Of a stretch of DNA of 59,404 nucleotides, positions 4,534 through 56,977 are shown in pieces. The position numbers and the translations under genes were made by a program. The stretch comes from an uncultured bacterium (GTDB taxonomy: Bacteria; DYJV01). Under the pieces are notes generated by a model. The model ran no database searches and was not told where the DNA came from. It saw only the letters and a list, made by a program, of their open reading frames with translations. Position 1 is the stretch's first letter. Each line of letters opens with the position of its first letter. The stretch covers positions 1-59,404 of the forward strand of contig CAZIZE010000031.1 of assembly GCA_964543655.1 (NCBI GenBank), written 5' to 3'.

Positions 4534-7152
4534 ATGGAGCAGTATAATTTTAAAAAAATTGAAGACAAATGGTACAGTTATTGGGAAGAAAAAGGATACT
4601 TTACTGCTGATACTAATAGCAATAAACCATCCTACTCTATTGTAATCCCGCCACCTAATGTTACAGGTTCTCTTCACATGGGACATGCTCTTAATAATAC
4701 TCTGCAAGATGTATTGTGCAGATACAAAAGGTTAAAAGGATACAATGTGCTCTGGATGCCAGGTACTGACCATGCTGGAATAGCAACACAAAATGTTGTT
4801 GAAAAAAAATTAGCAGAAGAAGGATTAACAAGACATGACCTTGGAAGAGAGAAATTTATAGAAAGAGTTTGGCAATGGCGTGAGCAATATGGCAGGACTA
4901 TTATCACTCAGCTCAAAAAGCTTGGTGCTTCATGCGATTGGAGCCGTGAACGTTTTACAATGGATGAAGGGCTCTCAAAAGCTGTTAAAGAGGTTTTTGT
5001 TAGGCTTTATGATCAAGGACTAATTTATAAGGGGGATTACATTATAAATTGGTGCCCAAGATGCCATACTGCTCTATCAGACCTTGAAGTTGAAATGGAA
5101 GAGAGCAAAGGAAAACTATGGTATATTAAATATCCAGTAAAAGGTGAAGATAGATATGTTGTTGTTGCTACCACAAGACCTGAAACCATGCTTGGTGATA
5201 CAGCTGTAGCAGTAAATCCCACTGATGAAAGATATAAAGACCTTATTGGCAAGAAAGTGATTCTCCCTGTTGTAAACAGGGAAATCCCTGTAATATCTGA
5301 TGATTATGTTGAAAAAGAATTTGGTACAGGAGTGGTAAAAATCACACCGGCACATGATTTTAATGACTTTATGGTTGCAATGAGACATAATCTTGAAGCA
5401 ATAGATGTAATGACAGATGATGCTACTATGAATAATATGGCAGGAGAATTTCAGGGACTTGACAGATTTGAATGCCGAAAAAAGCTTGTTGAAAAACTGG
5501 AAAAAGAAAATTTCCTTGAAAAAATAGAGGATTACCAGCTATTTGCTGGACACTGTTACAGATGTAAAACATTGGTTGAGCCAAGGCTTTCTAAACAATG
5601 GTTTATTAAAATAAAGCCACTTGCAGAAAAAGCAATTAATGCTGTAAAAAAAGGTGACACCAAAATAATTCCAGAACAGTGGGAAAACAACTATTTTGGC
5701 TGGATGGAGAATATTAGAGACTGGTGTATTTCACGTCAGATCTGGTGGGGACATAGAATCCCTGCGTGGTATTGTAATGATTGTCAGAAATATTCAGTTT
5801 CCAAAGAAAGTATAGAAAGTTGTTTACATTGTGGTAGTAAAAATATTTCTCAAGAGGAAGATGTTCTTGATACCTGGTTCAGCTCTGCACTCTGGCCATT
5901 TTCCACAATGGGCTGGCCAAAGCAGACTAAGGAACTTGAAAAATTTTATCCTACATCTGTTCTTGTAACTGGTTTTGATATACTCTTTTTCTGGGTAGCC
6001 AGAATGATGATGATGGGACTCTGGTTTATGAATGAAGTTCCTTTTAGAGATGTTTATATTCATGCTCTTGTTAGAGATGAAAAAGGTGAGAAAATGAGCA
6101 AATCTAAAGGGAATGTGATTGATCCTCTTATTATTATTGAGAAACATGGAGCAGATGCTCTTCGATTAACATTATCAGCTTTTGCTGCACAGGGTCGTGA
6201 TATAAAACTTTCAGAAAATAGGATAATTGGATACAAAAATTTTATTAATAAAGTTTGGAATGCTGCCAAATTTATAAAAATCAACTGTGAGGATTTAAAT
6301 GATGATTTTAATACAGATACTTTGTCAGATATAGATAAATGGATTTTAACAAGTTTGAAAAAAGCTGTTAAAACCTATGAAGCAGCTTTAAATGACTACA
6401 GGTTTAATGATGCTGTATCTGCAGTTTATCAATTTACATGGCACCAATTCTGCGATTGGTATATTGAACTTGCAAAGGTAAATCTCTCTGACAATTCGTT
6501 AAAAAACAATACCTACAGGACTCTTATTTATACCATTAAAGCTATTTTACAAATGTTACATCCTTTTATTCCATTTGTTACTGAGGAGCTATGGCACCAC
6601 TTTGATATTAACACAGATATAATGGTAAGTAATTTTATTGAAGAAAGTAAGATACCAGAATTTAATAATTCTTACAATGAAATGGAAAATATTATGGAAA
6701 TTATTAGTGGCATTAGGAATATTCGTGGTGAACTTAATATTTCACCTTCCAAAGCATTAAATCTCTACTTTTACTCTACAGATTCTTCCCTGAATGAGCT
6801 TATTGAAAAAAATCAGGTTTACATAAAAAAACTTACAAATCTTAAAAATATCCAATTTAAAACAGGTGAGCTACCTGAAAAAGTAATCAAAGATTATGTT
6901 AAAGGTGTTGAAATTTTTATTGATGTTGAAGGAGTAATAGATATTGAAAGTGAAATAAATAGATTACAAAAAGAGATTAATAAAACTTCAAAAGAACTTG
7001 AAAAGCTTAATAAAAAATTATCAAATAAAGATTTTTTATCAAAAGCACCTGAGCATGTTGTTGAGAAAAATAGAGTAAAAAAAATAGAACTTGAGGAAAA
7101 ATTAGAAAAAGCTAAAGCTGCACTTTATAGAATGGAAAAAATAGCTGATTAA
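4534..7152 (+). CDS. valS: Valine--tRNA ligase
   Basis: PPPNVTGSLHMGH (HIGH-like), GTDHAGIATQ, DWCISRQIWWGHRIP, KMSKS and a C-terminal coiled coil; AGGAG SD. Confidence 0.98.
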   Translation: MEQYNFKKIEDKWYSYWEEKGYFTADTNSNKPSYSIVIPPPNVTGSLHMGHALNNTLQDVLCRYKRLKGYNVLWMPGTDHAGIATQNVVEKKLAEEGLTRHDLGREKFIERVWQWREQYGRTIITQLKKLGASCDWSRERFTMDEGLSKAVKEVFVRLYDQGLIYKGDYIINWCPRCHTALSDLEVEMEESKGKLWYIKYPVKGEDRYVVVATTRPETMLGDTAVAVNPTDERYKDLIGKKVILPVVNREIPVISDDYVEKEFGTGVVKITPAHDFNDFMVAMRHNLEAIDVMTDDATMNNMAGEFQGLDRFECRKKLVEKLEKENFLEKIEDYQLFAGHCYRCKTLVEPRLSKQWFIKIKPLAEKAINAVKKGDTKIIPEQWENNYFGWMENIRDWCISRQIWWGHRIPAWYCNDCQKYSVSKESIESCLHCGSKNISQEEDVLDTWFSSALWPFSTMGWPKQTKELEKFYPTSVLVTGFDILFFWVARMMMMGLWFMNEVPFRDVYIHALVRDEKGEKMSKSKGNVIDPLIIIEKHGADALRLTLSAFAAQGRDIKLSENRIIGYKNFINKVWNAAKFIKINCEDLNDDFNTDTLSDIDKWILTSLKKAVKTYEAALNDYRFNDAVSAVYQFTWHQFCDWYIELAKVNLSDNSLKNNTYRTLIYTIKAILQMLHPFIPFVTEELWHHFDINTDIMVSNFIEESKIPEFNNSYNEMENIMEIISGIRNIRGELNISPSKALNLYFYSTDSSLNELIEKNQVYIKKLTNLKNIQFKTGELPEKVIKDYVKGVEIFIDVEGVIDIESEINRLQKEINKTSKELEKLNKKLSNKDFLSKAPEHVVEKNRVKKIELEEKLEKAKAALYRMEKIAD

Positions 7153-7154
7153 AA

Positions 7155-7865
7155 ATGAAAAAAATTTTTATAATTTTTATTTTAATTTTTCTTTGCTCCT
7201 GCGCAACAAATAAGCAGATAATAAAGTATGAGCCATATAGATTTAACCAATACATTCAGCTAAGCACCCTTAAATTTTTACCATTTAAAAACTTTGGTAA
7301 CAATTTTAAAGCTAAAATAACTTTTACATTAAAAAATGGCAAAAATTATAGTTTTTATGCTCTTGTATATAAAAACAACGAATTTGCAAGGGTATTTTGC
7401 TACACTTTTTTTGGTAAACAGGTGCTTGATATACTTTTTGGTGGAAAAGATTATGTTGTTGTAAACGCAAAACCAGAAGTTTATATTATTTATCCAAATA
7501 AAATTGATGAAAAAGAGAGTATTTTCTTCTTTTTAAAGCAAGTTTTGCATGGAATTGAGCTGAATAATGCAAACATTATAAATGATTGTATTACTGGCGA
7601 TTATTTTAATTACAGAGTGGTTAGCTGTAAAGAATCAAATTTTAAAAAAGTATTCTTTTACTCAAAAAATGGAAATTTGCAGAGAGAATTTAATATAAAT
7701 GATGATGAAATTATTTTAAAACTTAATGATAATATTTTACAGGTACGTTTTAAAGAAAAAATAAAGCGTAAAAATTTCAAAAAAAATTTTTTTACATCAA
7801 TCCAAAATTATAAAAGATACTATGTAAAAAATTTAAAAATAATTGAGGACAATATATTAAAATGA
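7155..7865 (+). CDS. Lipoprotein of unknown function (possibly LolB-like fold)
   Basis: Signal peptide with lipobox LCS-C; beta-rich sequence; coupled to valS and kdsD. The fold guess is weak. Confidence 0.6.
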   Translation: MKKIFIIFILIFLCSCATNKQIIKYEPYRFNQYIQLSTLKFLPFKNFGNNFKAKITFTLKNGKNYSFYALVYKNNEFARVFCYTFFGKQVLDILFGGKDYVVVNAKPEVYIIYPNKIDEKESIFFFLKQVLHGIELNNANIINDCITGDYFNYRVVSCKESNFKKVFFYSKNGNLQREFNINDDEIILKLNDNILQVRFKEKIKRKNFKKNFFTSIQNYKRYYVKNLKIIEDNILK

Positions 7866-8836
7866 CAAAGGAAGAAATTTTAAATTACGCAAAACATATT
7901 ATTTTAAAAGAAGCTGAAGCATTGAACCTACTCTCAGCTAACATTGACAATCAATTTTTTAATGTTGTGGAAACCTTATTAAATATTGAAGGAAAAGTTG
8001 TTTTAACAGGGATAGGTAAGTCTGGACTTGTTGCCAAAAAAATTTCTGCTACTTTATCAAGCACTGGCACTCCTTCATTCTTTCTCCATCCTGCTGAAGC
8101 TATACATGGTGATATTGGTGCTATTGATAAAAATGATGTTGTTATTGCAATTTCAACAAGTGGTGAAAGTGAAGAATTAATTCAAATTATCCCAACATTA
8201 AAATTACTTGCTAAAGAAATTATAGGTATCACAGCCAGAGTTGATTCCCACCTTGCTCAGCATGTGGATAGGTTGCTTATAATCCCGGATATTAATGAAG
8301 CATGTCATTTAAACCTTGCTCCCTCATGCAGCAGTACTGCCACCCTTGCACTTGGTGATGCAATAGCACTTACACTTTCATGGTTGAAAAATTTTAAATA
8401 TGAAGATTTTGCTATTAGACATCCAGGTGGAATAATAGGGAAAAAATTAACTTTAAAAATAAAGGACCTCATGCACACAGGAGATAGAGTGCCCAGGGTA
8501 AAATTAAATGATGATTTTAAAAAAGTGGTACTTGAAATGAGCTCAAAACGACTTGGATGCACAGGAGTTTTTGACAATAATGGAAAATTTTTAGGGATAA
8601 TTACAGATGGTGATTTAAGAAGAGCTCTTGAAAAATTTGAAAATATAATTGATTTAAAAGCTAAAGATATAATGACAGAAAATCCAAAAACTATAAATGA
8701 AAATGAGCGAGCTCTAAATGGTCTTATATTAATGGAACAGTTTAAAATCACCAACCTTTTTGTTATTGATGATAAAAAAAATATCTCAGGAATTATACAT
8801 CTACATGATATTTTAAGCTCAGGCTTAAGGATTTAA
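7862..8836 (+). CDS. kdsD: Arabinose-5-phosphate isomerase (KpsF/GutQ family, SIS + CBS pair)
   Basis: TGIGKSG, STGTPSFFLHPAEAIHGDIG, HPGG, GIITDGDLRR, HLHD. Confidence 0.95.
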   Translation: MTKEEILNYAKHIILKEAEALNLLSANIDNQFFNVVETLLNIEGKVVLTGIGKSGLVAKKISATLSSTGTPSFFLHPAEAIHGDIGAIDKNDVVIAISTSGESEELIQIIPTLKLLAKEIIGITARVDSHLAQHVDRLLIIPDINEACHLNLAPSCSSTATLALGDAIALTLSWLKNFKYEDFAIRHPGGIIGKKLTLKIKDLMHTGDRVPRVKLNDDFKKVVLEMSSKRLGCTGVFDNNGKFLGIITDGDLRRALEKFENIIDLKAKDIMTENPKTINENERALNGLILMEQFKITNLFVIDDKKNISGIIHLHDILSSGLRI

Positions 8837-10219
8837 AGGAAGAGTAATTTCAAATTTTGCCCCTTTCTCTGAAGGTAAAATTTGTATATTTCCACCATGA
8901 TTTTTTATAATACCATATACTATGTACAATCCTAACCCTGTACCTTTGGGACCCTTGGTGGTAAAAAATGGATCAAAAACTTTCTCTCTAATAGGTTCAG
9001 GTATTCCTGGACCTGTATCAGCAAACGTAATTATAAGGTTGCTTTCAAATTCAAACAGATCTATTGTTATTTCACCCTCTCCATTTAACGCATCAGCTGA
9101 ATTTGTTATTAAATTTTGAAATACCTGGAAAATTTGATTTTTAATACATTTAATTTCAATATTACTTGTGTTGAAATTCCCTTTAATTTTTATTTTATTT
9201 GAGATTATTTTAGCATTCTTGCATAATTCAATAACATCATTAATTATATTCTTAATATTCACTTTCTCCATTTTTTTAGAGTCAATTTCCTTGGTAACCT
9301 CTTTTACCCTGCTGACTATTTCTTTTATTCTGTCACAATGAGCTATTATTTTTCTAAAATACTCTTCATATTTATCCTCTTTTTTTAAAAGAAGTGCAAG
9401 CTCACTTAAACCTCTAATTGCACCAACTGGATTGTTTATCTCATGAGCTATCCCTGCTGAAATAGTACCTAAAGTTGCTAATTTTTCCTGCCTGATAATC
9501 ATATCCTGCAATTTCTGTATCTCTAATATCCTATTTTTTAACTCTTTATTTGCTTCCTCAAGACTTATAATTTTATCTTTTAAGTTTAGGATAAGTTGGT
9601 TATAAGCTTTAAAAACTGGCAAAAACTCAGTTTTATAAGAAGTGCTCATTAATTTATAATTACCATTAATTGTCTCTTTAATGGTTTCCAAAAAATTTTC
9701 TAATGGTGATAAAAATCTTTCAAGAAAAAAAGATATAACAATGAAAGAGATTGTTATAAAGATTAATAACAAAATTATTAAATAATTAATAGAATGTTTA
9801 ATAGCCTGTCTTATATCATTAATATTGTAATAAATTCTAATGTTAAAAGATGTTAGTCTTGCTGCTCCCACATTTTTAAAAATATTTATAAATTTAAATC
9901 TTTTTTCAACATAACGGGTGGAAAGAGAAAAGTTATTTTTTAAAGATAAAAATTCTTTATCTCCAATATAAACAAGAATATTTTCAATAAAATTGATATT
10001 ACTATAATTTTCAAGGATAACTTTTAAAAATTTTTTATTTTTAATTGTTAAAGCATATTTAACATCACTTTCCATTTTATTTATTAGTGCATAACATATA
10101 TTTTCCCTTATCTTTATTAATCTATGCTCTTCCTTTTTTATAAAAATAATAAATTCTGATGAAGAAACAATCAACAACAACACAACAATAAATAGTTGAA
10201 TCTTGGTTTTTAATTTCAT
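8825..10219 (-). CDS. Membrane sensor histidine kinase (2 TM, HAMP-like, HisKA, HATPase)
   Basis: H box [11 protein letters not shown] box [11 protein letters not shown]1 DTGPGI, F box FDPFFTTK, G2 GTGLGL. Overlaps the 3' end of the convergent kdsD by 12 bp. Confidence 0.93.
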
Positions 10220-10221
10220 AA

Positions 10222-11037
10222 TTAACTAAAATCAGGGGACTCTTTGTTTTCAACGATATTTTTATTTTTAATAACTTTCACATCTGAAGGATATACAATT
10301 TTTTTTAAAACATTTTTCTTCTTTATAAAATATAAAATAGATTTGCATAATATACAGCCTTCGCTAATAAAATTTGGAACAACAACAGCATAAGCTCCTA
10401 AATCCAGCATATCTTCAGAATAACCAATTATATATTTTCCCATTAGAATAGCTTTTTTAAAAATAAATTGAATAGAAAAGTAGTTAAAAACTGTTTTATC
10501 AGGTATAGCAAGCAATGCATCAGTTTCTTTAAGAGCTTTGTCTATTTTATATGGCACCTCTCCTATTTTTTTTACATAAAAAATTTTCAAATTTTTGGTT
10601 CTAAAATTTTTCAATAAATTGAGAATGTATCTATTATGAACAACAACAGATAATTTTTTCCCCTTTTCTAATAAATTTAATGCATTTTTAATCTGAGACT
10701 TTATAGAAGCAGTTAAAATAATATACTGCTTTATTAATGGGGAGTTATATTTTGATTTTTCTTCAATTGAATCGATTAATAAAAATATTGGTTTATGAAA
10801 GGTAATTGATTTATTAAAAAAAGTCTCATAGCTAATGATTAAAGTAACATCTTCTCTTTTTTCAAAAAGATTAACAATTTTAATATTTGGAAGATTCTTT
10901 TTCATTCCATCAACAATATCATTAAAATTTTTTTTATTTGGAAGCAAAGTGCCTACAACAATATTGTTAGAATTGTGAGAATAAAGAGATACTGCTAAAA
11001 AAATAAATATGAATAGGAAAAATAAAATTTTTTTCAT
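10222..11037 (-). CDS. Periplasmic substrate-binding-fold protein (ABC_sub_bind-like), likely sensory
   Basis: Signal peptide and a DALLAIPDKTVF...GYSEDMLDLGA segment typical of this family; lies between a TonB receptor and a kinase with no permease. Confidence 0.65.
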   Translation of the reverse strand: MKKILFFLFIFIFLAVSLYSHNSNNIVVGTLLPNKKNFNDIVDGMKKNLPNIKIVNLFEKREDVTLIISYETFFNKSITFHKPIFLLIDSIEEKSKYNSPLIKQYIILTASIKSQIKNALNLLEKGKKLSVVVHNRYILNLLKNFRTKNLKIFYVKKIGEVPYKIDKALKETDALLAIPDKTVFNYFSIQFIFKKAILMGKYIIGYSEDMLDLGAYAVVVPNFISEGCILCKSILYFIKKKNVLKKIVYPSDVKVIKNKNIVENKESPDFS

Positions 11038-11041
11038 TTTA

Positions 11042-12925
11042 TTAAAAGTTGTATTTTATTTTTAAATAAACTAATCTACCAATATCTTCACCAAAATAAG
11101 CTTCTTTATGAACATTATTAAATAAATTTTCTCCATGTAAAGAAACTTGTAATTTGTTATGAAAAAAATTTTTAATAATAGTTGCATTAATTGATAGGTA
11201 ATAATCTGAAGATTCACCAGTAAAAGCTTTAATAGCTGGCAAATATGTGGTGGTTAGACTACCTGATAACTCAGGATAATCAAATATCAATCCTCCAGCA
11301 AGTTTATATTTAGGAAGGTAATATGTATTACTGCTATTAAAAGTTTTATTTTTCATTTTTTGTATAAGGTATGAAGCAAAAATATTAAAATGTTTAGTTG
11401 GAATGTATTTAAAAGATGATTCTAAACCATGTACTGCATAATCTATTAAATTAATATTGTAAAAATCAATATGAAGAGGAAAGGTAAATTGAAAAAATCC
11501 ATTTGTGGTAATGGTATCTGTTATCCTATTGTAAAAAAGAGTTGTTTTAAAAATGAAATTATTCCATTTTTTTGAAATCGAGAGGTCAGTTGTATATATT
11601 TTTACAGGTTTCAAATGTCTATTATTATGAAGGTTTGCAATTAATTGAACTTTTATTGGAAAATCAATGTTTTCCACAGGAATTGTAGCACTATAGCTTG
11701 TATATTTAGCATACATTGAAGGAGGCTTTATAGACTTGGAATAACCTGTGTTTATTTCAAATGTTTTATCATCTGAAATATAGGATAAATTAAATTTATA
11801 ATTAAAATTTGAGCCATTATTTTTAATAAAGTTATTTCTAATTGTTAAACTAAACTTAAAATTTTTAAAAAACCTTAAACTCTGGCTAACAAATGGAGCA
11901 ATATCATAATCATTGCATGATGTTAAGTCTCTTACAAAAATATGATAATATTTAGCATCTATTCCTGTTAAAAAATTATTTTTAGAATATCTAAAGGAAA
12001 ATTTGTAAAATTCATTAACAAATTTAGCATTCTCAATTTTATCAATTAGTCTAATTGCAACATAACCTGTGGTATCTTGATAGTAAAATGATGAATCAAT
12101 ATGGGGATATTTATAATTTAATAAAAAATTTTTTATTTTAAAATTATTAAATTCTTCATACATTTTAAGGCTATACATCTTATGATTAATGCCAACAGGA
12201 TACGATTCTAAAAAGTTTAAATCCCCATCTGAAATTCCAGTTTTTATAAAAAACTTAGAATTATTAATATATTTTTCAACAGAAAGATTTATTAACTTAG
12301 ATTTATCTATTCTACGATCTCTATTAAACTCATCCACACTTCTAAAACGGCCTGTTAATTTCCAGTAACTACCGAGATTATAGCCATTTATAGAGAAATT
12401 TAATTTATTAAAATCTCTTGAACCACCAGTAGCGCTAATATAATTATTATCAAGAAATTGTGGATGCCTGGTAACAATGTTAATAATACCTGCTGGTTCT
12501 ATATATCCATTGGAATTTGAACCAGTAGTTTTAATTATCTCCACTCTATCAATGTCATCAATTGTAACTGGAATATTGTAAAAATAAGTTCTGCTGTAAT
12601 AATTCTCTGTAATCTCCATTCCATCTACCAAGATTAAGGGATTTAATTTTAATTCAGGTAAGAATCCCCTCATATAAACATTGGCAGTTGCACCATTAAC
12701 TCTGTTAACTAAGATACCAGAAACAAGATTGATTAATTCAGGAACACTTTCTACTCCCATTAACTGAATTTCCTTACTGGTAACCACCTCAACAGAAGGT
12801 GAAAGTGATGACAGGTCTTGAGAAAATGAGGTGGATGTAGTAATTGGTGTAATATCAGAAGAATATAGATTTGAAATTAGAGTAACTAAAATATAAAAAA
12901 GAGTTGTAATAGTAATTTTTTTCAT
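11042..12925 (-). CDS. TonB-dependent outer-membrane receptor
   Basis: Plug motifs (VEVVTSKEIQLMG, LILVDG, DDIDRVEIIK, GIINIVT) and C-terminal ENLFN...GR...YNF. ATG 12925 preferred over GTG 12949. Confidence 0.88.
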   Translation of the reverse strand: MKKITITTLFYILVTLISNLYSSDITPITTSTSFSQDLSSLSPSVEVVTSKEIQLMGVESVPELINLVSGILVNRVNGATANVYMRGFLPELKLNPLILVDGMEITENYYSRTYFYNIPVTIDDIDRVEIIKTTGSNSNGYIEPAGIINIVTRHPQFLDNNYISATGGSRDFNKLNFSINGYNLGSYWKLTGRFRSVDEFNRDRRIDKSKLINLSVEKYINNSKFFIKTGISDGDLNFLESYPVGINHKMYSLKMYEEFNNFKIKNFLLNYKYPHIDSSFYYQDTTGYVAIRLIDKIENAKFVNEFYKFSFRYSKNNFLTGIDAKYYHIFVRDLTSCNDYDIAPFVSQSLRFFKNFKFSLTIRNNFIKNNGSNFNYKFNLSYISDDKTFEINTGYSKSIKPPSMYAKYTSYSATIPVENIDFPIKVQLIANLHNNRHLKPVKIYTTDLSISKKWNNFIFKTTLFYNRITDTITTNGFFQFTFPLHIDFYNINLIDYAVHGLESSFKYIPTKHFNIFASYLIQKMKNKTFNSSNTYYLPKYKLAGGLIFDYPELSGSLTTTYLPAIKAFTGESSDYYLSINATIIKNFFHNKLQVSLHGENLFNNVHKEAYFGEDIGRLVYLKIKYNF

Positions 12926-13101
12926 AATTATTTCTACAAAATTTTTCACAATTTGTCAAAATTTTATTTTACATAAATTTTATAACATATTTTTATGAAA
13001 TATTGCAAAATTCTTTTAAAAATTAATTTCTTGACAATAAAAATTATTTCTTTTATATAAAATTATGTTCTATTTTTCTAATTTTTGATAAGGAGGATAT
13101 A

Positions 13102-21550: not shown

Positions 21551-22297
21551 TTAATCAATGAAACATACTACTTTTTCTCCTTCTATTTCAATAATTTTTA
21601 CATTGATATTGTAGATATTTTTTAATAAATCTGGGGTGATTATTTCACTATTGCCATAAGCAAAAATTTTATTATTTTTTAAAAACAAAAACTTATCCGA
21701 AAATTTTAGTGCAATATTAATATCATGCAAAACAGAAATTACTATAATTTTCATATTTTTTACAAGTTTTTTGATAATATTCATAACTTCATATTGGTTA
21801 TAAATATCAAGATGATTAACTGGCTCATCAAGTAAAAGTATTTTTGGATTTTGTGCTACTGCTCTTGCAATTAAAACCTTTTGAAGCTCACCACCACTTA
21901 GCTGGTTGGTATTGGATGAACTAATTTTTTGTAATTTAAAATTTTCTATAATTTTATTAACTAATTTTATATCATTTTTTGAAGGGAGAAAATTTATATA
22001 TGCTTTCCTTCCTAATAATATTGTATCAAATACAGTAACTAATTCTCCAGAATATTTTTGTGGTAAGTAGCCAATGTTTTTTGCAAGTTCTCTTTTATTT
22101 AATTTATCTTTACCATTAACAATAACTGTGCCTTTTGTTGGAGATAATATTTTAGCAATATTTTTCAATAAAGTTGTTTTTCCAGAACCATTTAAACCAA
22201 GTATTGAGAGAAATTCTCCTCTGTGAATTTGAAAATTTATATTTTCCAGAATTAATCTTTTTTTATATTTAAAATGCAGATTCTTTATTTCTAACAT
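21551..22297 (-). CDS. Metal-chelate/cobalamin ABC transporter ATPase (FecE/BtuD-like)
   Basis: GLNGSGKT, LSGGELQKV, LLLDEP, VLHD. ATG 22297 preferred. Confidence 0.92.
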   Translation of the reverse strand: MLEIKNLHFKYKKRLILENINFQIHRGEFLSILGLNGSGKTTLLKNIAKILSPTKGTVIVNGKDKLNKRELAKNIGYLPQKYSGELVTVFDTILLGRKAYINFLPSKNDIKLVNKIIENFKLQKISSSNTNQLSGGELQKVLIARAVAQNPKILLLDEPVNHLDIYNQYEVMNIIKKLVKNMKIIVISVLHDINIALKFSDKFLFLKNNKIFAYGNSEIITPDLLKNIYNINVKIIEIEGEKVVCFID

Positions 22298-22298
22298 T

Positions 22299-23294
22299 TT
22301 AACCCCTTTTGCTTTTAACCATAATATAGAGAAATAGAGGCACACCAGCAAAGGATGTTATGATTCCAACAGGTAAAACAATCGGTTTAATAATAATTCT
22401 TGATATAATATCTGCAAGTAACAGTAAAAACGCACCATTAATTGCTGATAAAGGAATTAAAAATCTATAATCACTACCTATTATTATTCTTATAAAATGA
22501 GGTGCTATCAGGCCAATGAAACCAATGATTCCAAGAAATGCAGTGCATACAGAAGATATTAATGATGCAAAAACAAGTGTAAAAACTGTCAGCAATTTTA
22601 CATTTACGCCAAGACTTTTTGCAACATCTTTACCCCATATAAATGCATTATAGTTCCATGAATTATAAAGGAAAAATATTAAAATAGGTACCAGAAATAG
22701 AATCATAATTGAAATATTTTCCCATGTTGCTTTTGAAAGATCACCAAACGTCCAAAATACAGCTGAGGCTACTTGAATATCATTTGCAAAATATTTTAAA
22801 AACATTATACCTGCATTAAAAAAAGCACCTAAGGCTACTCCTGATAGTATAATTGATTCAGAGGTAATTGAAGGTAGAGTTGCCAGAAAAAGAATAGCTA
22901 AAATAGCTATTAAAGAACCTGAAAAAGCTGACAAAACAAGTAGATATTTTATTTTAAAAAAATTTTTAAACACAACAATTGCAAGTGTTGCTCCAAATGC
23001 TGCTCCTTGGGATACTCCAAGGGTAAAAGGTGAAGCAAGGGGATTTTTTAAGATATTCTGTAAAACTGCTCCTGAAACTCCTATGGCAGCACCAGTAATT
23101 AGAGCACCTGCGGTTCTTGTTAACCTGATATTTAGTAGTATAAATTTTAATTTTTCATTTAATTTTCCTGTAACTAAATTATATAGTGATATTTGAAATT
23201 CACCTATTTTTAAAGAGATTACTATTGCTATACAGAGTAAAAAAAATAAAATAAATCCTATTAAAACTTTTTTTATAACAAGTTTGTTGTACAT
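22299..23294 (-). CDS. FecCD/BtuC-family ABC permease
   Basis: LQNILKNPLASPFTLGVSQGA, AKSLGVN, GIIGFIGLIAPH, LPVGIITS. Confidence 0.93.
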   Translation of the reverse strand: MYNKLVIKKVLIGFILFFLLCIAIVISLKIGEFQISLYNLVTGKLNEKLKFILLNIRLTRTAGALITGAAIGVSGAVLQNILKNPLASPFTLGVSQGAAFGATLAIVVFKNFFKIKYLLVLSAFSGSLIAILAILFLATLPSITSESIILSGVALGAFFNAGIMFLKYFANDIQVASAVFWTFGDLSKATWENISIMILFLVPILIFFLYNSWNYNAFIWGKDVAKSLGVNVKLLTVFTLVFASLISSVCTAFLGIIGFIGLIAPHFIRIIIGSDYRFLIPLSAINGAFLLLLADIISRIIIKPIVLPVGIITSFAGVPLFLYIMVKSKRG

Positions 23295-23296
23295 AA

Positions 23297-24055
23297 TTAA
23301 TCAAGTTTAAAAACAAGTAAAAGCTTTACAGTTATTCTGTGCATTTTTAGTTTTGCAGGTATTGGTGGCAGAGGTAATGCAGATTTAACAGCATTAATTG
23401 CAGCATTATCGAGAATTTTTGACCCAGATGTTTTTAAAATTTTTATTCCTTTTAAACTTCCATTTTGGTTTAATGTAAACTCAATCTCTGCTGCACCTTC
23501 TATACCCATTTTTCTTGCAATATCAGGATATATTTTATTTGCCTCTATTTTCTTTCTAATGTTCATAAGGTATATTTTTATTAAATCAATATTATTTCTA
23601 CCTGATTTTTTTGAATTACCATTAATATTCTTAAAATTTGATTTAGAATTTTTCTTTGTTAAATTTCCCTTTTTTACTCTTGATGTATAAGGTATATAAT
23701 GTAGAGGAATGTTAGAAGGAATATCTGATAAGTTATTTTCAACTATTTTGTTTTTAAAATTTGTTGGTTTTAGTTTAGGTATTTTAAAATTTTCTATATT
23801 TATATTTTTTACAGGTTTTATAGGCTCTATATTTTCATTTACATTTATAGTAGGAATTTCAGGTAAATTATTTAACCGGGTATCAGGTTGATAAGTTTGC
23901 AAATCAATAGTTATTTTATTATTATTGATTGAAAGTTGTGGCAACCTGATAAAAGGAATTCCTCTAATAAAAAATAGCAATATTAAGTGCAACAACAATG
24001 AGAAAAAAAATATATAGAAAATGCTATTATTTTTTGTCTTTTGTGGCAATAACAA
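23297..24055 (-). CDS. tonB: Energy transducer TonB
   Basis: N-terminal TM with SLLLH; C-terminal YPDIARKMGIEG...SGSKILDNAA. Confidence 0.88.
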   Translation of the reverse strand: MLLPQKTKNNSIFYIFFFSLLLHLILLFFIRGIPFIRLPQLSINNNKITIDLQTYQPDTRLNNLPEIPTINVNENIEPIKPVKNINIENFKIPKLKPTNFKNKIVENNLSDIPSNIPLHYIPYTSRVKKGNLTKKNSKSNFKNINGNSKKSGRNNIDLIKIYLMNIRKKIEANKIYPDIARKMGIEGAAEIEFTLNQNGSLKGIKILKTSGSKILDNAAINAVKSALPLPPIPAKLKMHRITVKLLLVFKLD

Positions 24056-24434
24056 GTTTTTTTGCTCCTAAAGATTTTGCAAGGTCAAGAATATTAACAG
24101 CAATTTCAACTTTGCTATCCTTATCTGCTTTTAAAATTACTATTTTGCTATCTGAATTATCTATAGCTTGTTTTAAAATCGCAGGTAATTTTTTTTGAGA
24201 AACAAAGTTCCCATGAAAATATATTCTGTTCTCTTTTGTTACATAAATTGTAATATTTTCATTGTGAACAACTGTTTTTGAAGAGGATTCTGGTAGCTTA
24301 ATTTTTATCCCCTCTTTTTCAATAAAATTACTTGTTAGCATGAAAAAAATTAGGAGAAGAAAGACAATATCTATTAAAGGAGTTAAATTTAAAAATTCTT
24401 TGTTATTATTTATTTTGCTCTTGATGTTAATCAT
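24027..24434 (-). CDS. exbD: Biopolymer transport protein ExbD
   Basis: NLTPLIDIVFLLLIFFM and ILKADK. Confidence 0.93.
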   Translation of the reverse strand: MINIKSKINNNKEFLNLTPLIDIVFLLLIFFMLTSNFIEKEGIKIKLPESSSKTVVHNENITIYVTKENRIYFHGNFVSQKKLPAILKQAIDNSDSKIVILKADKDSKVEIAVNILDLAKSLGAKKLVIATKDKK

Positions 24435-25074
24435 GGTGATGAAAATACCCCGCTTTCTCTAACGCTTCTATTAACTCATTACCAATATCATTCATTGAAC
24501 CAACTATTTTGTTTAATTTTGAGGTAAAAAAACTGTACGCAAGCATTGTAGGTATAGCAACAGCAAGCCCCATAGCTGTAGTTAACATTGCTTCCCATAT
24601 TCCACCTGCAAGTACCTGAGCATTAACTTTCCCACCAAATTGCTGTATTACCATAAAAGCTTTTATCATACCAAGAACTGTACCAAGCAGTCCTAATAGC
24701 GGTGATAGCTGTGCAATGGTTAAAAGTGCTGGTAAGTTTCTCTCCATTTCCCTAACTTCTCTTTCACCAACATAGTTAATGGATTTCTCTATTGCTTCTC
24801 TTGAACTGCTACAACAACCAGTAGGAACAATATGTTTTGTAACTATTTCATATACAACCTTTACCACAGGAGAGTTTGATTCTTTAAGCTGAGGTACTAT
24901 TTTGTTAATGGTTCCATCTTTTAATGATTCAATAATTTTAAAGAGTAATTCAGGATCTTTTAATGATATTTTTCTAAAGGCTATAAACCTTTCAATAATA
25001 AATGTAAGCGAAAATACAGAGCATAATAGAATCAAATAACCACATATTCCTGATTTTGCAATTAATTCATACAT
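24427..25074 (-). CDS. exbB: ExbB/MotA/TolQ proton channel
   Basis: SPLLGLLGTVLGMI and AGGIWEAMLTTAMGLAVAIP. ATG 25074 fits the AGGAG SD better than GTG 25080. Confidence 0.93.
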   Translation of the reverse strand: MYELIAKSGICGYLILLCSVFSLTFIIERFIAFRKISLKDPELLFKIIESLKDGTINKIVPQLKESNSPVVKVVYEIVTKHIVPTGCCSSSREAIEKSINYVGEREVREMERNLPALLTIAQLSPLLGLLGTVLGMIKAFMVIQQFGGKVNAQVLAGGIWEAMLTTAMGLAVAIPTMLAYSFFTSKLNKIVGSMNDIGNELIEALEKAGYFHHHD

Positions 25075-25147
25075 TTCCACTCCTTTTGTGTATAGTTAAA
25101 CTAAAATGATGTTATAAAATTATTTTTAACTCTAATTCAAACATTAT

Positions 25148-26272
25148 TTACTCTTCTATATCAATTTTCCCATCGAAATTTAAATCAAGTTCTTTTTTAT
25201 ATAATTTTCCATTTTTGTAATATTCCCACTGATCAACTTTATTGTCAAAATTATTATCTTTTTCAATTCTTATTAATTTACCATTTTTATAAAATGCAAA
25301 AAAATCATATTTTTCATCACTATTACTATCTTCTTTAAATTCATACAGTTTATTGTTCTTATACATCCAAACCTGTTCTGGGAAATTATCTTCATTTTTA
25401 TCAAAATAGATTGTTTTATTCCCATTTTTGAATATTATCTTTTTTTCAAAAATATTATTACAATTTTTACTAATATAAATATTTTTACCTATTTCAACTT
25501 TTTTTGGATATTTACAATTTTGAGAAAAAATTGCTTTTTTCACAATTTTACCACTTTTGTTGAAATACAATTTTAAATTAAAGAATCCATTATAATTTGA
25601 ATCAACTTTTTCAAAACTCTTTTTTCCATTTTTATAAAAAATAATTCTGTCAAAATGGCCATCAAGATTTGAATCTATTTTTTCCATGCTTTTCTTTCCA
25701 TTTTTTTCAAAAAAAATAATGGTAAAAATTTTATTATTTTTATGAATAATTACTTTACTTATATTACCATTTTTGTAAATAAAAGTTTGATTTCCTTTGA
25801 GAATTTTAACAATATTTTTAGGAAGATAAAGAGTGATTTGATTTTTCTCCACCTGTTTTACAACTTTTCCATTTTTATCAAAAAAGATAAATTTATCAAA
25901 ATTATTGTCATAGTTACTATCTATTTTTTCTTCAAAAATTTTACCATTCCTGAAAACCATTTCATTGTCAATTTTGCCATCTTTATTTTTATCTTTTTCA
26001 ATTTTTACTATTTTACCATTTTTTAAATAAATTGTAGTTTCAAAATATTTATCAAAATTTTTGTCCTCTTTAATTTCATAAATTTTACCATCTTTTAAAA
26101 ATTTAATAATATCAGCCTTAGTATCACCATTTCTATCTTCCATTAACTTTACAAGCTCTCCTTTTGGATTATAAAATGCTGTAAACTTACCCTTTTTTAA
26201 AATATTATACTTTGCATTTAAATTTAAACAGGGTAAAAACAATAAAAGTATTGTTATTTTAACAATTTTCAT
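25148..26272 (-). CDS. Exported Lys-rich repeat protein with ~11 DxNxDGxxD-type repeats
   Basis: Signal peptide MKIVKITILLLFLPCLNLNA; recurring ~23-aa units such as DKNKDGKID, DSNLDGHFD, DLNFDGKID; GGAG SD at 26283-26286. Confidence 0.75.
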   Translation of the reverse strand: MKIVKITILLLFLPCLNLNAKYNILKKGKFTAFYNPKGELVKLMEDRNGDTKADIIKFLKDGKIYEIKEDKNFDKYFETTIYLKNGKIVKIEKDKNKDGKIDNEMVFRNGKIFEEKIDSNYDNNFDKFIFFDKNGKVVKQVEKNQITLYLPKNIVKILKGNQTFIYKNGNISKVIIHKNNKIFTIIFFEKNGKKSMEKIDSNLDGHFDRIIFYKNGKKSFEKVDSNYNGFFNLKLYFNKSGKIVKKAIFSQNCKYPKKVEIGKNIYISKNCNNIFEKKIIFKNGNKTIYFDKNEDNFPEQVWMYKNNKLYEFKEDSNSDEKYDFFAFYKNGKLIRIEKDNNFDNKVDQWEYYKNGKLYKKELDLNFDGKIDIEE

Positions 26273-26290
26273 CAATACATCACTCCATAT

Positions 26291-26352
26291 AAAAAAAGCC
26301 ACAAAGGTATCATGAGAACCTTCATGGCTAAAAACTTATTTCATATAAGTTT
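26291..26352 (-). promoter_or_regulatory. Candidate transcription attenuator: tandem AUGAA-loop hairpins plus overlapping intrinsic terminator
   Basis: Minus-strand RNA: P1 AAACUUAU-AUGAA-AUAAGUUU (26332-26352); P2 AGCC-AUGAA-GGUU (26317-26329); terminator AGCCAUGAAGGU/ACCUUUGUGGCU (12 bp) plus U-tract (26291-26329). Confidence 0.6.
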
Positions 26353-26356
26353 CTTT

Positions 26357-26385
26357 TTTTTAACATAAAAGAATTTTTACGTCAA
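26357..26385 (-). promoter_or_regulatory. Sigma70-type promoter for the attenuated leader
   Basis: TTGACG-17 bp-TAAAAA with an extended -10 TG; predicted start near 26350-26352, at the beginning of P1. Confidence 0.5.
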
Positions 26386-44401: not shown

Positions 44402-46515
44402 AAAAGATTATTAAATTTATATCTATTATCTCAATTCTTTTTATTGCAAACAACCTTTTTGCACTTGAATTTATAAAAAAAAATTTCACCTTTAAGAAAA
44501 AGTCCAAAATTGAAATAACTGCTGATGTTTTAAGTTTTGATAAAAAAAATCAAATATTTTATGCAGAAGGTCTGGTGAAAATCACACAAGAAGGACTTAC
44601 TGTTGATGCAGATAGAGTAAAGTATAATCTTATAAAAAAATTAGTAGAAGCTGAAGGTCATGTAAAAATTGTCCAAAATGGAGATACAATTAATTGCAAT
44701 AAAGTGGTTCTTGATCTTAAAAACAACACTGGTAAAATTGAAAAAGGTGAAATTTTTATAAAAAAAAGACATTTTAGAATTATTGGTGACTCTATTAAAA
44801 AAGATTCCAGCGGCAACTATATTCTTGACAATGTTACCCTTACATCATGTTGCAGACAAAATCCGTTCTGGTCATTTACAGCAAAGACAATAAAAATTAC
44901 CCCTCAAGGATTGGGAAAAGCTAAAAGTGTGAAATTCAGGTTTGGTTTTTTTCCATATCCTTTAATGTATGTACCTTATGCTACATTCCCCACTAAAAAT
45001 GAGAGAGGCTCAGGATTTCTTATTCCCTACTTTGGTCTTAACAGTAAATTTGGAGCAAGATATAGACAGGGTTACTACTGGGCAATTAATCAGAGTAGTG
45101 ATATGACTTTCTATTACGATTTAATGTCAAAAAGGGGAATAAAAGTTGGTACAGAATATAGATATTTGCTTACAAATAAAGGTAGAGGTCTTGCAAGATT
45201 CTTCTATCTGGATGATAAAGGAATGAAAAGGAAATATTATTCTATTTATGATGATACAAAGCAACGTTTTTATTTAAAATTCAATCACTACCAGGAATTT
45301 CAAAATGATTTTAAAATTTTTGCTGATATTAATTATATAAACGATATAAACTATAAAAATGATTTTCCTGAAGATTTTAAAAACACCAATTTTATGAATA
45401 GGCAATCAATTCAATCAGAAAACAGCATGAATTCTATCCTCTATGCAACAAAGAAATTTGATTATTTGAATCTTATCTTAGATGCTGAATACTTTCAAGA
45501 TCTTACCAAAACTACCAACAAATACACAAGTCAAAAATTACCAGAAGCTGGAATATTTGTTTCTCAAAATGATTTTCTCAATATTAATCTATATAGTTTA
45601 CTTGATGCACAATACCTAAATATTTATAGAAAAAAAGGTGAAAGTTTTTCAAGGATTTATATAAAACCAGAATTAATAAAGCCATTACATTTAAAAAATT
45701 ATTTTATTACTTCCACAGAGGTAGCACCAACATTTGCTGAATATTTTTTCGATGTTGATGAAAACAGCCTTGGCAATACCAATAAGTTCTATTTTCACGT
45801 TCTTCATAATGGCAGATTTCAATTATCCAGAGTTTATGATTTTCCATATCTTGGGGTGGTTAAATTAAAGCATGTTATTGAGCCAATGTATGAGATTGAC
45901 TATATTTCTGACACCAAATCAATTTTTGAAAATTTTAGACATTTTGATTACATAGATGATGAAATTAATAGAAATATTTTAAAATATGGATTTAAGCAAA
46001 GATTAATAGCAAGATTGGATGACGGCTCTTATCAAGAATTTATTTACTGGGAACTGTATCAATTCTATCAAATAGACAGGCAAGATTACTTTTTTCAGGG
46101 AAGAAAAAATAGTGATATATATTCTGATATAAGATTTAATCTCTGGAAAAATTTTTCAATGGAAAATAACCTATCTTATGATCCATATGAAAATCAGTTA
46201 AGAAAATTCTCCATTTGGAGCAATGTAAAATTTACTGACAAAAATTTCTTATACATGGAATACAGATATATGAGAGATGAAGTAAAACAGTACAACATGG
46301 GATTTAATGTTCACTTTTTGGATAAATTTGATTTTTATAATTATACCAATTATGATATCCTTCAATCAAGGCTTGAGCAGATTACCTATGGATTAAAATA
46401 CTCTATTCCATGCTTTGCAGCTAATTTTAATATTACAGAAGAGCACAACCCATACAATTTCTCTTTTAATTTTCAACTAACATTTCAAGGTATTGGCAGC
46501 ATAGGCAATTTTTAA
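44398..46515 (+). CDS. lptD: LPS-assembly protein LptD
   Basis: N-terminal OstA-like domain (ITAD, AEG.V.I, LTSC...P.W), R.SGFLIP, YYWAI, aromatic beta-barrel. Confidence 0.88.
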   Translation: MKKIIKFISIISILFIANNLFALEFIKKNFTFKKKSKIEITADVLSFDKKNQIFYAEGLVKITQEGLTVDADRVKYNLIKKLVEAEGHVKIVQNGDTINCNKVVLDLKNNTGKIEKGEIFIKKRHFRIIGDSIKKDSSGNYILDNVTLTSCCRQNPFWSFTAKTIKITPQGLGKAKSVKFRFGFFPYPLMYVPYATFPTKNERGSGFLIPYFGLNSKFGARYRQGYYWAINQSSDMTFYYDLMSKRGIKVGTEYRYLLTNKGRGLARFFYLDDKGMKRKYYSIYDDTKQRFYLKFNHYQEFQNDFKIFADINYINDINYKNDFPEDFKNTNFMNRQSIQSENSMNSILYATKKFDYLNLILDAEYFQDLTKTTNKYTSQKLPEAGIFVSQNDFLNINLYSLLDAQYLNIYRKKGESFSRIYIKPELIKPLHLKNYFITSTEVAPTFAEYFFDVDENSLGNTNKFYFHVLHNGRFQLSRVYDFPYLGVVKLKHVIEPMYEIDYISDTKSIFENFRHFDYIDDEINRNILKYGFKQRLIARLDDGSYQEFIYWELYQFYQIDRQDYFFQGRKNSDIYSDIRFNLWKNFSMENNLSYDPYENQLRKFSIWSNVKFTDKNFLYMEYRYMRDEVKQYNMGFNVHFLDKFDFYNYTNYDILQSRLEQITYGLKYSIPCFAANFNITEEHNPYNFSFNFQLTFQGIGSIGNF

Positions 46516-46517
46516 AA

Positions 46518-46923
46518 GGGGATAGCCTATAAGCCGGATTCTGTTAATGGCAGTCATTCATCTAAGCTTACAGTTGCCTGTAAGCTTTAGCAGCCTACCC
46601 GGGAATATTGAGGAGGGCAACTCTTATTCCCCTATTTGGCTTTGCACCAGGTGGGGTTTACCATGCCATTACTGTCACCAGTAATGCGGTGAGCTCTTAC
46701 CTCACCTTTTCACCCTTACCCCGCACAATATTTATTAATACAAAAGTCTCAACCAACTAACAACTATCAACTATCAACCAACAACTATTAACCAACAGGT
46801 GCGGGGCGGTATATTTTCTGTGGCACTATCCTTCCATTACTGGAAGTTGGCGTTACCAACCACCCTGCCCTCTGGTGTCCGGACTTTCCTCCTGCAAAAG
46901 CAGGCGACTGCCCAGCTATCCCC
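46518..46923 (-). ncRNA. rnpB: RNase P RNA (bacterial type A) with a 72-nt insertion in the P12 region
   Basis: Minus strand: P1 GGGGAUAGC/GCUAUCCCC, GAGGAAAGUCCGG, AGUGCCACAGAAA, GGUAAGGGUGAAA, GGUAAACCCC, ACAGAAUCCGGCUUA. The 3' end abuts the lptD stop. Confidence 0.97.
46750..46798. repeat. Heptamer tandem array x7 inside rnpB P12
   Basis: caaccaa ctaacaa ctatcaa ctatcaa ccaacaa ctattaa ccaacag, enclosed by the stem CCCCGCAC (46719-46726) / GTGCGGGG (46799-46806). Confidence 0.88.
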
Positions 46924-50522: not shown

Positions 50523-51515
50523 TTAAACTTCCATTTCAAGCCATGAATGTGAATATAAAACTTTTCCTGTTAATACAAGGAATGACTTGTAATATTCAAG
50601 CTCTATTCCTTCTAATTCTTTAGGATTAATTTTTGGCTGATTTTTATAATCAGTCTGAGTTTCTATATAATGACAAACTGTTGGAAAAGTTTCTTCATCA
50701 AGCTCATGAGCCATAAATCTACCTGCAAGATCAACAAGGTTTGGTCTTTCACCTTTACAAAGAGCCATCATATCTTTATCATAAGCATCCACAATAGAAG
50801 AATAGATTCCAAGAACCATATGCATTGCCTGATATGGACCATTTAATTTAGGTCTCAACTCTGTAGGTGTTCCATTTGAAACGTTAGATAAACCACATGT
50901 TGAAAGTGCACCAGGAGCAAAATCAGGGATCATAGGCAAAAATTCAAGAAAAGCAATAACCTGATTCAAACTAACACTTACTGGTAAAACTATTGGGTCA
51001 ATCCACATTTTATTTTCTGGAATACCAAATTCAAGTGCTTTTGCATAAATTTTACCAGCACAGTCTCCTCTTTCATTAACATCTCTTGGAATACCTTCTT
51101 CACTTAAAGTTAGTGCAACAAAGTTGCAGTTGTACTCTTTAACAAGAGGCATTCTCTCTTCAAGAGATTCAGGCTGAGCTGAAATAGAGTTAATTATAGC
51201 TGTCTCTGGATTTCTCACAACTTTCAATCCTGCTTTAACAGCTTCTGTATTAGTTGTGTCAAGAGCAAGTGGAATTTCATCACCAACTCTTGGATCAACT
51301 TCTTGAACAGTTTTTACAAGCCATGCCATCATCTCATCACCAGCTTTTCTTGCTGGACCAAGGTTGAGATCAAGAATTGTTGCACCAGCTTCTATCTCTT
51401 CTTCTGCCATTTTCTGAACTGGCTTAGCATTTCTCTCTTTAATAGCAGGGCCAATTGTTTTTGACATAATATTTATACTTTCTGCCAATGTTTCTATTTT
51501 GTAATTTACAGCCAT
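50523..51515 (-). CDS. acsE: Methyltetrahydrofolate:corrinoid Fe-S protein methyltransferase
   Basis: Pterin-binding barrel: AESINIM, LDLNLGP, LALDTTN, IINSIS, WIDP, GLSNVSNG; end of the acs cluster. Confidence 0.9.
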   Translation of the reverse strand: MAVNYKIETLAESINIMSKTIGPAIKERNAKPVQKMAEEEIEAGATILDLNLGPARKAGDEMMAWLVKTVQEVDPRVGDEIPLALDTTNTEAVKAGLKVVRNPETAIINSISAQPESLEERMPLVKEYNCNFVALTLSEEGIPRDVNERGDCAGKIYAKALEFGIPENKMWIDPIVLPVSVSLNQVIAFLEFLPMIPDFAPGALSTCGLSNVSNGTPTELRPKLNGPYQAMHMVLGIYSSIVDAYDKDMMALCKGERPNLVDLAGRFMAHELDEETFPTVCHYIETQTDYKNQPKINPKELEGIELEYYKSFLVLTGKVLYSHSWLEMEV

Positions 51516-51565
51516 ACTCCGTTCCTCCTTAAATTTAAATAGGATAAAATCCTTTTACTTTAAAA

Positions 51566-52915: not shown

Positions 52916-52951
52916 TTTAAACTCCTTTCACAAATTTTACTTTAAATATTT

Positions 52952-52974
52952 TAAGTGGGGGAATCCCCCACTTA
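52952..52974. other. Perfect 10-bp intercistronic hairpin after acsB
   Basis: TAAGTGGGGG-AAT-CCCCCACTTA. Weak U-tract in the sense direction, so an mRNA-stabilising or processing hairpin is as likely as a terminator. Confidence 0.6.
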
Positions 52975-52977
52975 TTT

Positions 52978-55197: not shown

Positions 55198-55249
55198 AAC
55201 TCAAACCTCCATAGTTTTTTTGCCTTCATGGCTATTTAAAATTTAAATT

Positions 55250-56191
55250 TTAAGCATAAAGTTCATTAATCAGTTCTTTCATAACAGAAACTGATTTAGG
55301 ATTTCTCATAATTAAAACTGAAGAACCTGCTGTTAAAACATCAAGAGCTGTTATTGTCTCCATAAGGATACCTCTTGTATCTTGATCTCCAAAAGAAGGC
55401 TCTTCTTCAATTGTAAGCATAGCTTCTCTTGTTTTCCATGCTTCTTTTGCAAGATCATTTACAAATGGTAACTGCATTTTTTCATCATTTTGTGCTAATG
55501 CAGCCAATGAGATTCTCTCCATAACTGAATAAGTATATTCAATTCCATAACCAAGAGCACCTGTTGTTGGATCCATAATAATTTTGTCAAGAGGAAGTCC
55601 AAGGTTTTCACAAAGAATATTTAACTGTTTTGCAAGGTTAACATCAATAGATGACTTAGCAACTATTGAATGTCCATAACCTATTGCAGAAGCAGCAATT
55701 TTTTTATAATTTGCTTCTTCTGCTGGCCCAAGAAGAAAATTTTCATTTGGAAAAGCTTCCATAATTGCTGGAAGAACTTCTTGATCCTTTTCCACATTAC
55801 CAGAGCCCCATATAATTAAAGGAACATCAACTGCTTCTTTAACAGCTTTAACTGTTTCAACGGCTTCTTCTGCACTTCTGTTAGCACCATTAGGATCTGT
55901 GCCAGCAAGTTGAACCACTATTAAATCAGCCCCATATTCAACACATTTTTTTGCCCATGCCCCTGGGTCATTTAAAACATCTTTAAAAGGCTCAACCACT
56001 GCTGGTGGCCATTGATCTGGTGCAATATCATACACCTCCATAGCAATAACTGGCTTATTAGGCCATTCTCCTTCAAAAGTACAAAGAGGCATACTGTTAT
56101 AACCACCTACCTGCACTGCTTTGTCACCTTTGCCTATGGTGACTACTTTAATTTTTCCTGCATAATTCTCTTTGGGAATTGCAAAAGCCAT
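55250..56191 (-). CDS. acsD: Corrinoid Fe-S protein small (delta) subunit
   Basis: IAMEVYD, SSIDVNLAKQLN, MDPTTGALGYGIEYTYSVMER. Confidence 0.96.
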   Translation of the reverse strand: MAFAIPKENYAGKIKVVTIGKGDKAVQVGGYNSMPLCTFEGEWPNKPVIAMEVYDIAPDQWPPAVVEPFKDVLNDPGAWAKKCVEYGADLIVVQLAGTDPNGANRSAEEAVETVKAVKEAVDVPLIIWGSGNVEKDQEVLPAIMEAFPNENFLLGPAEEANYKKIAASAIGYGHSIVAKSSIDVNLAKQLNILCENLGLPLDKIIMDPTTGALGYGIEYTYSVMERISLAALAQNDEKMQLPFVNDLAKEAWKTREAMLTIEEEPSFGDQDTRGILMETITALDVLTAGSSVLIMRNPKSVSVMKELINELYA

Positions 56192-56207
56192 TTTACACTC
56201 CTTTCTT

Positions 56208-56963: not shown

Positions 56964-56977
56964 AAAACCTCCTAAAT

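Follow-up and report, generated by a model that had tools for sequence, protein, structure and literature searches.

A conserved dual-hairpin leader element, apparently undescribed, ahead of metal-uptake operons: a candidate antitermination switch for nickel uptake

Comparison of bacterial leaders points to a conserved dual-hairpin attenuator family that has no Rfam match and is apparently undescribed. It came to light in the window, as we call the whole 59,404-nt stretch of DNA from an uncultured bacterium (contig CAZIZE010000031.1) that was analysed. The comparisons show a predicted promoter-proximal hairpin (P1), a predicted terminator, and a loop motif that occurs both in P1 and in the terminator 5′ arm, where it would close a second hairpin (P2). 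The element, which recurs before metal-import genes of many anaerobes, is very probably a cis-regulatory attenuator and, with moderate confidence, we read it as a protein-dependent antitermination switch for nickel uptake that replaces NikR. In sulfate reducers and related anaerobes the supply of nickel sets a limit on hydrogenases and on CO dehydrogenase/acetyl-CoA synthase; as far as is known, nickel uptake is controlled there by the DNA repressor NikR. A widespread dual-hairpin attenuator over NikR-type genes would imply a second, RNA-level route and a metal-responsive RNA-binding protein.

Results

The leader and its operon in the window

A first-pass annotation had placed a promoter, P1, P2, an intrinsic terminator and a Shine–Dalgarno sequence on the minus strand of the window, and all of these parts are found there (Table 1). 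Transcription is predicted to start near 26351. The terminator stem (26329-26297) has 12 bp, including two G·U pairs, and a 9-nt loop, and its U tract runs to 26291. The 5′ arm of this stem is the P2 sequence itself, separated from P1 by a gap of 2 nt, and P2 and the terminator are mutually exclusive, as had been annotated. The predicted fold of the leader consists of P1 and the terminator (−21.6 kcal/mol, z −5.8, 0/200 shuffles as good); the terminator alone gives −17.4 kcal/mol (z −5.6). By itself P2 has little stability (−2.2 kcal/mol, z −1.2, 23/200 shuffles as good), and after 43 nt have been transcribed a local hairpin is predicted to outcompete it. Consensus scans of the window missed both the promoter and the terminator because of their own rules, the −10 hexamer lacking the required final T and the terminator loop exceeding 8 nt. 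The element motif occurs once in the window, which is chance level, and we rejected a repeat or uptake sequence on this count.

Table 1. Predicted parts of the leader and genes of the operon behind it, in window coordinates
Feature	Position	Strand	Basis
−35 hexamer TTGACG	26380..26385	-	sequence
−10 hexamer TAAAAA, TGT just 5′	26357..26362	-	sequence; 17-nt spacer to −35
P1 hairpin, 8 Watson–Crick pairs, pentaloop AUGAA, predicted transcript 5′ end	26332..26352	-	sequence, fold
P2, putative antiterminator hairpin, 4 bp (AGCC-AUGAA-GGUU)	26317..26329	-	sequence, fold
Intrinsic terminator including U tract	26291..26329	-	sequence, fold, family covariation
Shine–Dalgarno sequence of first gene (GGAG 26286-26283)	26281..26286	-	sequence
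Opening gene of the operon, encoding a secreted DxNxDG-repeat protein; start codon TTG 26275 or ATG 26272	25148..26275	-	
exbB	24427..25080	-	PF01618
exbD	24027..24434	-	PF02472
tonB	23297..24055	-	PF03544
FecCD/BtuC-family permease	22299..23294	-	PF01032; tree placement
ABC ATPase	21551..22351	-	PF00005

The operon had been described as a TonB/ExbBD/metal-ABC operon. Its exbB, exbD, tonB, permease and ATPase genes bear this out, but it opens with the gene of a DxNxDG-repeat protein, for which no curated family reached its cut-off, and it has neither a receptor nor a binding-protein gene. Among the matches listed, relatives of the repeat gene lie ahead of exbB in 36/80 loci, and in Desulfobacterota and their relatives such a gene regularly opens operons of the exbB-exbD-tonB type. 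Most of the 20 members of the window ExbB clade have a cytoplasmic Cys-Cys motif and a His-rich C-terminus, possibly a metal site. The divergent neighbour of the operon is LpxH-like. Elsewhere on the minus strand of the window are an acetyl-CoA synthase cluster with a CooC-like gene (50523-58993), which is a nickel consumer, an RNase P RNA (46514-46923) and a TonB receptor linked to a histidine kinase (8825-12949).

The same leader is found at the orthologous locus L001 (G+C 31%), whose ExbB is 70% identical to that of the window and whose gene order, repeat gene-exbB-exbD-tonB, is the same. Its promoter keeps the −35 hexamer, the 17-nt spacer and the −10; the P1 stem differs by a compensatory change and carries the loop AAGUA; and the two terminator arms are identical to those of the window at 12/12 and 10/10 bases, both G·U pairs included. 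This conservation goes beyond chance, because only 60/136 fourfold-degenerate sites of the four shared genes are identical between the two loci. Near-identical cobalamin riboswitches (2162-2378 and 11814-12023) flank the element operon of L001 on both sides and head a btuB-like/cobN-like unit and a DUF2162–ExbB-like–DUF2149 unit.

In the window the AUG of the P2 loop opens a 17-codon hydrophobic frame (26272-26325, minus strand) whose stop overlaps the start of the first gene, and the L001 leader has a frame with the same overlap. Leader-peptide control through this frame is scarcely credible: no such frame is present in the other copies, a start codon opens the P2 loop in only 2/27, and the window and L001 frames have no synonymous changes in common. 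We rejected a leader-peptide attenuator for want of a conserved start codon and frame.

The element recurs ahead of related genes

A profile scan of genome contigs with an alignment of 21 ExbB proteins gave at least 80 loci. Among the matches listed, the regions upstream of repeat genes showed the same element many times; it is present in 20/80 loci, 13 of these 20 being labelled Thermodesulfobacteriota by NCBI. Several loci carry two to four copies, among them that of Desulfosarcina widdelii PP31 (L011; cultured, complete genome), which has two. We analysed 30 copies and that of the window; nearly all lie directly 5′ of a gene.

A strict pattern matched 31 times in 22/81 sources, as against 1-5 matches in ten Markov simulations, and a P1 of at least 5 bp lay within 100 nt of 20/31 matches (5% of random positions) and within 240 nt of 24/31 (11%), counts that favour the model, the pattern having been composed after the loci were viewed and the P1 copies chosen for pairing. 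Two reverse-strand echoes of terminators (L007, L021) and three chance-like matches (L003, L043, L049) were set aside, L080, with its match downstream of exbB, was excluded from the repeat-gene count, and the degenerate leaders of L004, L047 and L055 were scored negative. A covariance model built from 27 curated copies found seven more sense-strand matches (E 5e-5 to 0.68), preceding repeat genes, exbB or permeases, and zero matches in 22 Bacteroidota/Ignavibacteriota loci.

The Rfam search that the first-pass annotation had proposed returned no known family. Rfam 15 gave no gathering-score match to the window element (best E 0.14, an unrelated sRNA, 24.6 versus 67 bits), and across the 20 element loci (14 searched at gathering score only, 6 at E ≤ 1) there was no match at the element in 18; weak, unrelated sRNA matches at E ≤ 1 overlap copies in L007 and L019. 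The matches obtained in the window and the element loci were to RNase P, cobalamin and TPP riboswitches and tRNAs, none of them at the element. None of the computational findings that the annotation had itself named as contrary to its reading, such as a known Rfam family or loss of the loops in related leaders, was encountered.

Some loci depart from the common arrangement. L007 has two tandem P2–terminator units with a single P1 (7657-7878, plus strand) ahead of an fmdE-domain gene, and in L045 the repeat gene, exbD and tonB behind the copy are split into several frames (8559-11765), either pseudogenes or assembly errors. Three loci scored negative for the element (L020, L054, L072) share another motif ahead of the repeat gene; it overlaps the promoter and may be an operator of the Fur/Zur/MntR type.

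Conserved structure of the element

Throughout the family the order of parts is a TTGAC promoter, a 5′ P1, a variable linker, and P2 (GCC-ANGAA-GGY) inside the terminator 5′ arm. P1, which has at least 5 bp in 27/31 copies, appears to open the transcript, because a TTGAC-type hexamer lies 35-62 nt 5′ of its core in 21/23 copies. The annotation had asked for a test of covariation, which P1 and the terminator pass and P2 does not. In 19 pentaloop copies, themselves selected for pairing, 6/6 P1 pairs change on both sides (44 cells versus 12.8 shuffled), and loop positions G3 and A5 are invariant (19/19). Mismatches in P1, counted with a strand-neutral pick, are G·U 19 times and A·C twice (p 2e-4), and P1 therefore acts as RNA and not as a DNA operator; nor did any copy have a NikR or Zur consensus (≤2 mismatches) at P1, and a DNA operator was rejected. 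Terminator pairs gave 15 covarying cells versus 4.1 shuffled (0/500 shuffles as high), and the variable base of the P2 loop covaries with the terminator 3′ arm (CG 17, GC 6, AU 2, UG 2). The three core pairs of P2 are intact in 27/27, 25/27 and 27/27 copies; the first alternates between G-C and G·U, its G facing C or U in 27/27; covariation of P2 is not above shuffles (152/500 as high). Because P2 is near-invariant, we can only infer its pairing across the family.

AUGAA had been proposed as the recognized loop. The family consensus is instead (A/G)NGAA, and the P2 loop is ACGAA in 16/27 copies and AUGAA in 2/27. Neither are twin identical loops and tight spacing general: the P1 and P2 loops are identical in 4/27 copies, and linker lengths span 1-214 nt, with a median of 41 nt and 19/27 copies between 30 and 60 nt; the linkers have no common 5-mer beyond shuffle level. 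In this comparison twin AUGAA loops and the 2-nt spacing are confined to the window lineage, the window and L001 being short-linker variants of the element. CsrA/RsmA sites have GGA in their loops, a triplet found in only 2/27 P1 and 5/29 P2 loops, and this candidate was discarded.

In every copy the terminator is far stabler than P2 (predicted −14 to −36 versus −1.3 to −9.8 kcal/mol). This difference, together with the absence of P2 covariation, would suit a terminator that constitutively dampens transcription, or a short decoy RNA that ends there, with P2 never forming; so would the copy in L027, behind which comes not a gene directly but another promoter and a riboswitch. We think such an element very unlikely, since it leaves unexplained the fixed sequence of the 5′ arm across phyla, the restriction of the G partner in P2 to C or U, and a like-looped hairpin at the start of the transcript. 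Moreover, the motif is absent from the remaining terminator-like sites listed in the window, and nearly all copies lie directly before a gene.

A riboswitch is also improbable. The guanidine-II riboswitch has twin like-looped hairpins and needs ACGR loops in both; P1 and P2 might likewise dock loop to loop and bind a small ligand, as their paired arrangement, their conserved purine-rich loop and the frequency of ACGAA in P2 would allow. CG is present in both loops of only 5/27 copies and in neither loop of the window, however, and guanidine-II-type kissing was rejected on these figures. Conservation is confined to very few nucleotides and does not extend to the linkers, which are long, and Rfam is without a match. 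In addition, a ligand bound to P2 would turn uptake on, which would be the wrong sense for an imported metal.

The genes behind the element fit nickel

The first-pass annotation had suggested a metal or corrinoid uptake operon; metal-uptake genes do follow the element, and as a set they favour nickel over corrinoids. Genes downstream of the copies encode TonB receptors, DUF4198, FmdE, TrmO-like and CooC-like proteins, CooT with DUF3842, tetrapyrrole methylases and ABC systems, as well as a small protein without a family match that we take, from a sequence motif, to be CooJ-like. One copy (L016) heads a DUF4198–porin–CbiM/NikM–NikL-like–CbiQ–ATPase operon, the gene order that has been published as nikKMLQO under NikR (PMC545781). 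Among the matches listed, nickel markers occur in 13/20 element loci and 7/60 others (p 9e-6) and, within repeat-gene loci, in 12/17 versus 5/19 (p 0.018), values whose significance the Fisher tests overstate, the loci being related, gathered by the ExbB query and not independent.

Phylogeny suggests a link to NikR. In a quick permease tree (n=21), where the row of the window has an odd composition, the window groups with the element-headed L014, L030, L037 and L064 (SH-aLRT 97), and the sister of this clade is the permease of L008 (support 98). L008 is without the element; ahead of its receptor-trmO-fmdE-ABC-exbBD-tonB cluster lie instead nikR and three NikR boxes. The receptor of this cluster shares 34% identity with the L014 receptor. 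No NikR box was found in any element leader.

The same antitermination might instead answer to cobalt or corrinoids, or to a general demand for nickel and cobalt, which we consider doubtful. A btuB-like receptor gene and a cobN-like gene adjoin copies in L001 and L031, the element sitting between the cobN-like gene and the repeat gene; cobalamin riboswitches lie near copies in L001, L027 and L030; tetrapyrrole methylases are encoded in three element loci; and the S component of L016 scores as CbiM, its NCBIfam name. However, the neighbouring corrinoid operons have riboswitches of their own, and the permeases of the riboswitch-headed operons in L027 and L030 fall outside the window clade, whereas the CooT, CooC-like and CooJ-like genes and the NikR-headed sister L008 are nickel-specific.

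A weak candidate for the protein

Since the annotation had also called for a search for RNA-binding regulators, we looked in the element loci: no ANTAR domain was detected among the 192 locus proteins covered by a Pfam scan, and no regulator with an RNA-binding fold was found near any copy. The nickel chaperone CooT, alone or with DUF3842, is a weak candidate for the antiterminator, to which we give a small probability; it would read the loops when empty and release them when loaded with nickel. CooT is a 7-kDa nickel-binding dimer so far tied only to CO-dehydrogenase maturation, and if the proposal held it would act as a nickel sensor at the RNA level, autoregulated and taking the place of NikR. 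The dimer (PF10133; PDB 6FAN) is reported to bind one Ni at 9 nM (PMC6006190).

Among the matches listed, the five cooT genes lie in four loci, all element-positive (4/20 versus 0/60), and clustering of 5,423 ORFs left CooT and DUF3842 as the sole small genes restricted to element loci. Co-regulation alone would explain this linkage, which counts against CooT as the antiterminator, and the window has no cooT gene. In favour of the proposal, one atlas cluster is automatically named RNA-binding protein. The predicted fold of CooT shows strong likeness to CooT only and no clear likeness to an RNA-binding fold (Hfq: Z 2.8, rmsd 2.8, 48 aligned), a weak or missing fold match that does not exclude one; DUF3842 is predicted to be Rossmann-like. 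DUF3842–CooT and CooT–DUF4198 fusion proteins occur (P0183, P0278, P0286). On the minus strand of L007, a 13-codon remnant resembling the CooT C-terminus (~7333-7374) directly follows an element copy, with a 66-aa CooJ-like gene (7118-7315) 3′ of it.

Discussion

The leaders described above suggest the following course of events. Transcription would start at the foot of P1 and, by default, the terminator would form and RNA polymerase would stop about 60 nt on; conservation gives the structure, from which we infer termination. Under nickel shortage the (A/G)NGAA loop of P1 would recruit an RNA-binding protein, acting in trans and probably a dimer, which would then hold the weak P2, with its like loop, blocking the terminator and allowing the repeat protein-exbB-exbD-tonB-ABC operon to be transcribed. 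With the protein nickel-bound or absent, the terminator would win. We suppose the protein to be active at low nickel because a cell short of the metal should express the genes for its uptake, and we prefer a protein to a ligand because P2 is weak, the loop occurs twice, and linkers of such varied length share no 5-mer. The preferred linker of ~40 nt would fit loading at P1 first and subsequent transfer or bridging to the emerging P2, as proposed for EutV (PMC8934654).

If this reading is correct, the motif could be used to flag nickel-specific TonB receptors and ABC systems as well as the DxNxDG-repeat protein, and Desulfosarcina widdelii PP31 makes the attenuator testable in culture.

Among known systems, two invite comparison by their response or their shape. 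The NiCo riboswitch is an RNA-level response to nickel and cobalt, with a larger, multi-stem aptamer that turns efflux on; neither it nor guanidine-II matched the element in Rfam. The pan motif (RF01749) is closer in form, consisting of tandem simple hairpins that are thought to bind a dimeric protein in delta-proteobacteria. In pan, however, A residues bulge from the stem and the genes that follow are those for pantothenate (PMC2864571), and the core 10-mers of the element are absent from the supplements of that paper, one of which was covered in part. We rejected both pan and atoC as identities of the element, their descriptions and sequences being different. No description of the element was found in the literature covered, including PMC11247825, PMC6344411, PMC5317091 and PMC2965389 and the main texts of PMC5737381 and PMC11109978, whose lists of candidate motifs could bear on novelty.

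The closest systems in layout are the ANTAR-target RNAs (EutV, NasR, AmiR, GnfR), which like the element consist of two like-looped hairpins, the second overlapping the terminator 5′ arm, and whose loops begin with A and have G third from the end. The element shows this overlap too, with two hairpins of 3 bp or more. It is thus conceivable, if unlikely, that the element is a variant ANTAR target whose pentaloops are read by an ANTAR protein encoded elsewhere. The loop G, three bases from the 3′ end, would then correspond to hexaloop G4, the sole base-specific contact of EutV (PMC8934654); two P1 loops are in fact hexaloops with A1 and G4, and a GnfR antiterminator functions in Geobacter (PMC2995071), at a site that by inspection differs from the element. 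ANTAR targets have A1/G4 hexaloops and linkers of 5-12 nt (eut) or 2-25 nt (actinobacteria) (PMC3369931, PMC8934654, PMC8164766). In contrast, loops of 5 nt dominate the family (22/27 P1, 28/29 P2) and those of 6 nt are rare (2/27 and 0/29), both window loops being pentaloops that depart from the hexaloop rule, as the annotation had observed. The linker is 25 nt or shorter in just 3/27 copies, and the window, with 2 nt, falls short of the eut linkers and just reaches the shortest actinobacterial ones. EutV is reported to fail with 3- or 14-nt linkers or a 20-nt extension (PMC8934654, PMC3369931), spacings that the element tolerates. ANTAR targets accompany nitrogen or ethanolamine genes, whereas the element accompanies metal-uptake genes, and among the locus proteins that the Pfam scan covered there was no ANTAR protein.

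In its targets, the element resembles the NikR regulon of delta-proteobacteria (PMC545781), with nikKMLQO-type transporters in common, and the NikR-headed cluster of L008 is related to the element-headed clusters. In means the two differ: NikR represses at a DNA palindrome, whereas the element, in leaders free of NikR boxes, would act as a strand-specific RNA structure at the step of termination.
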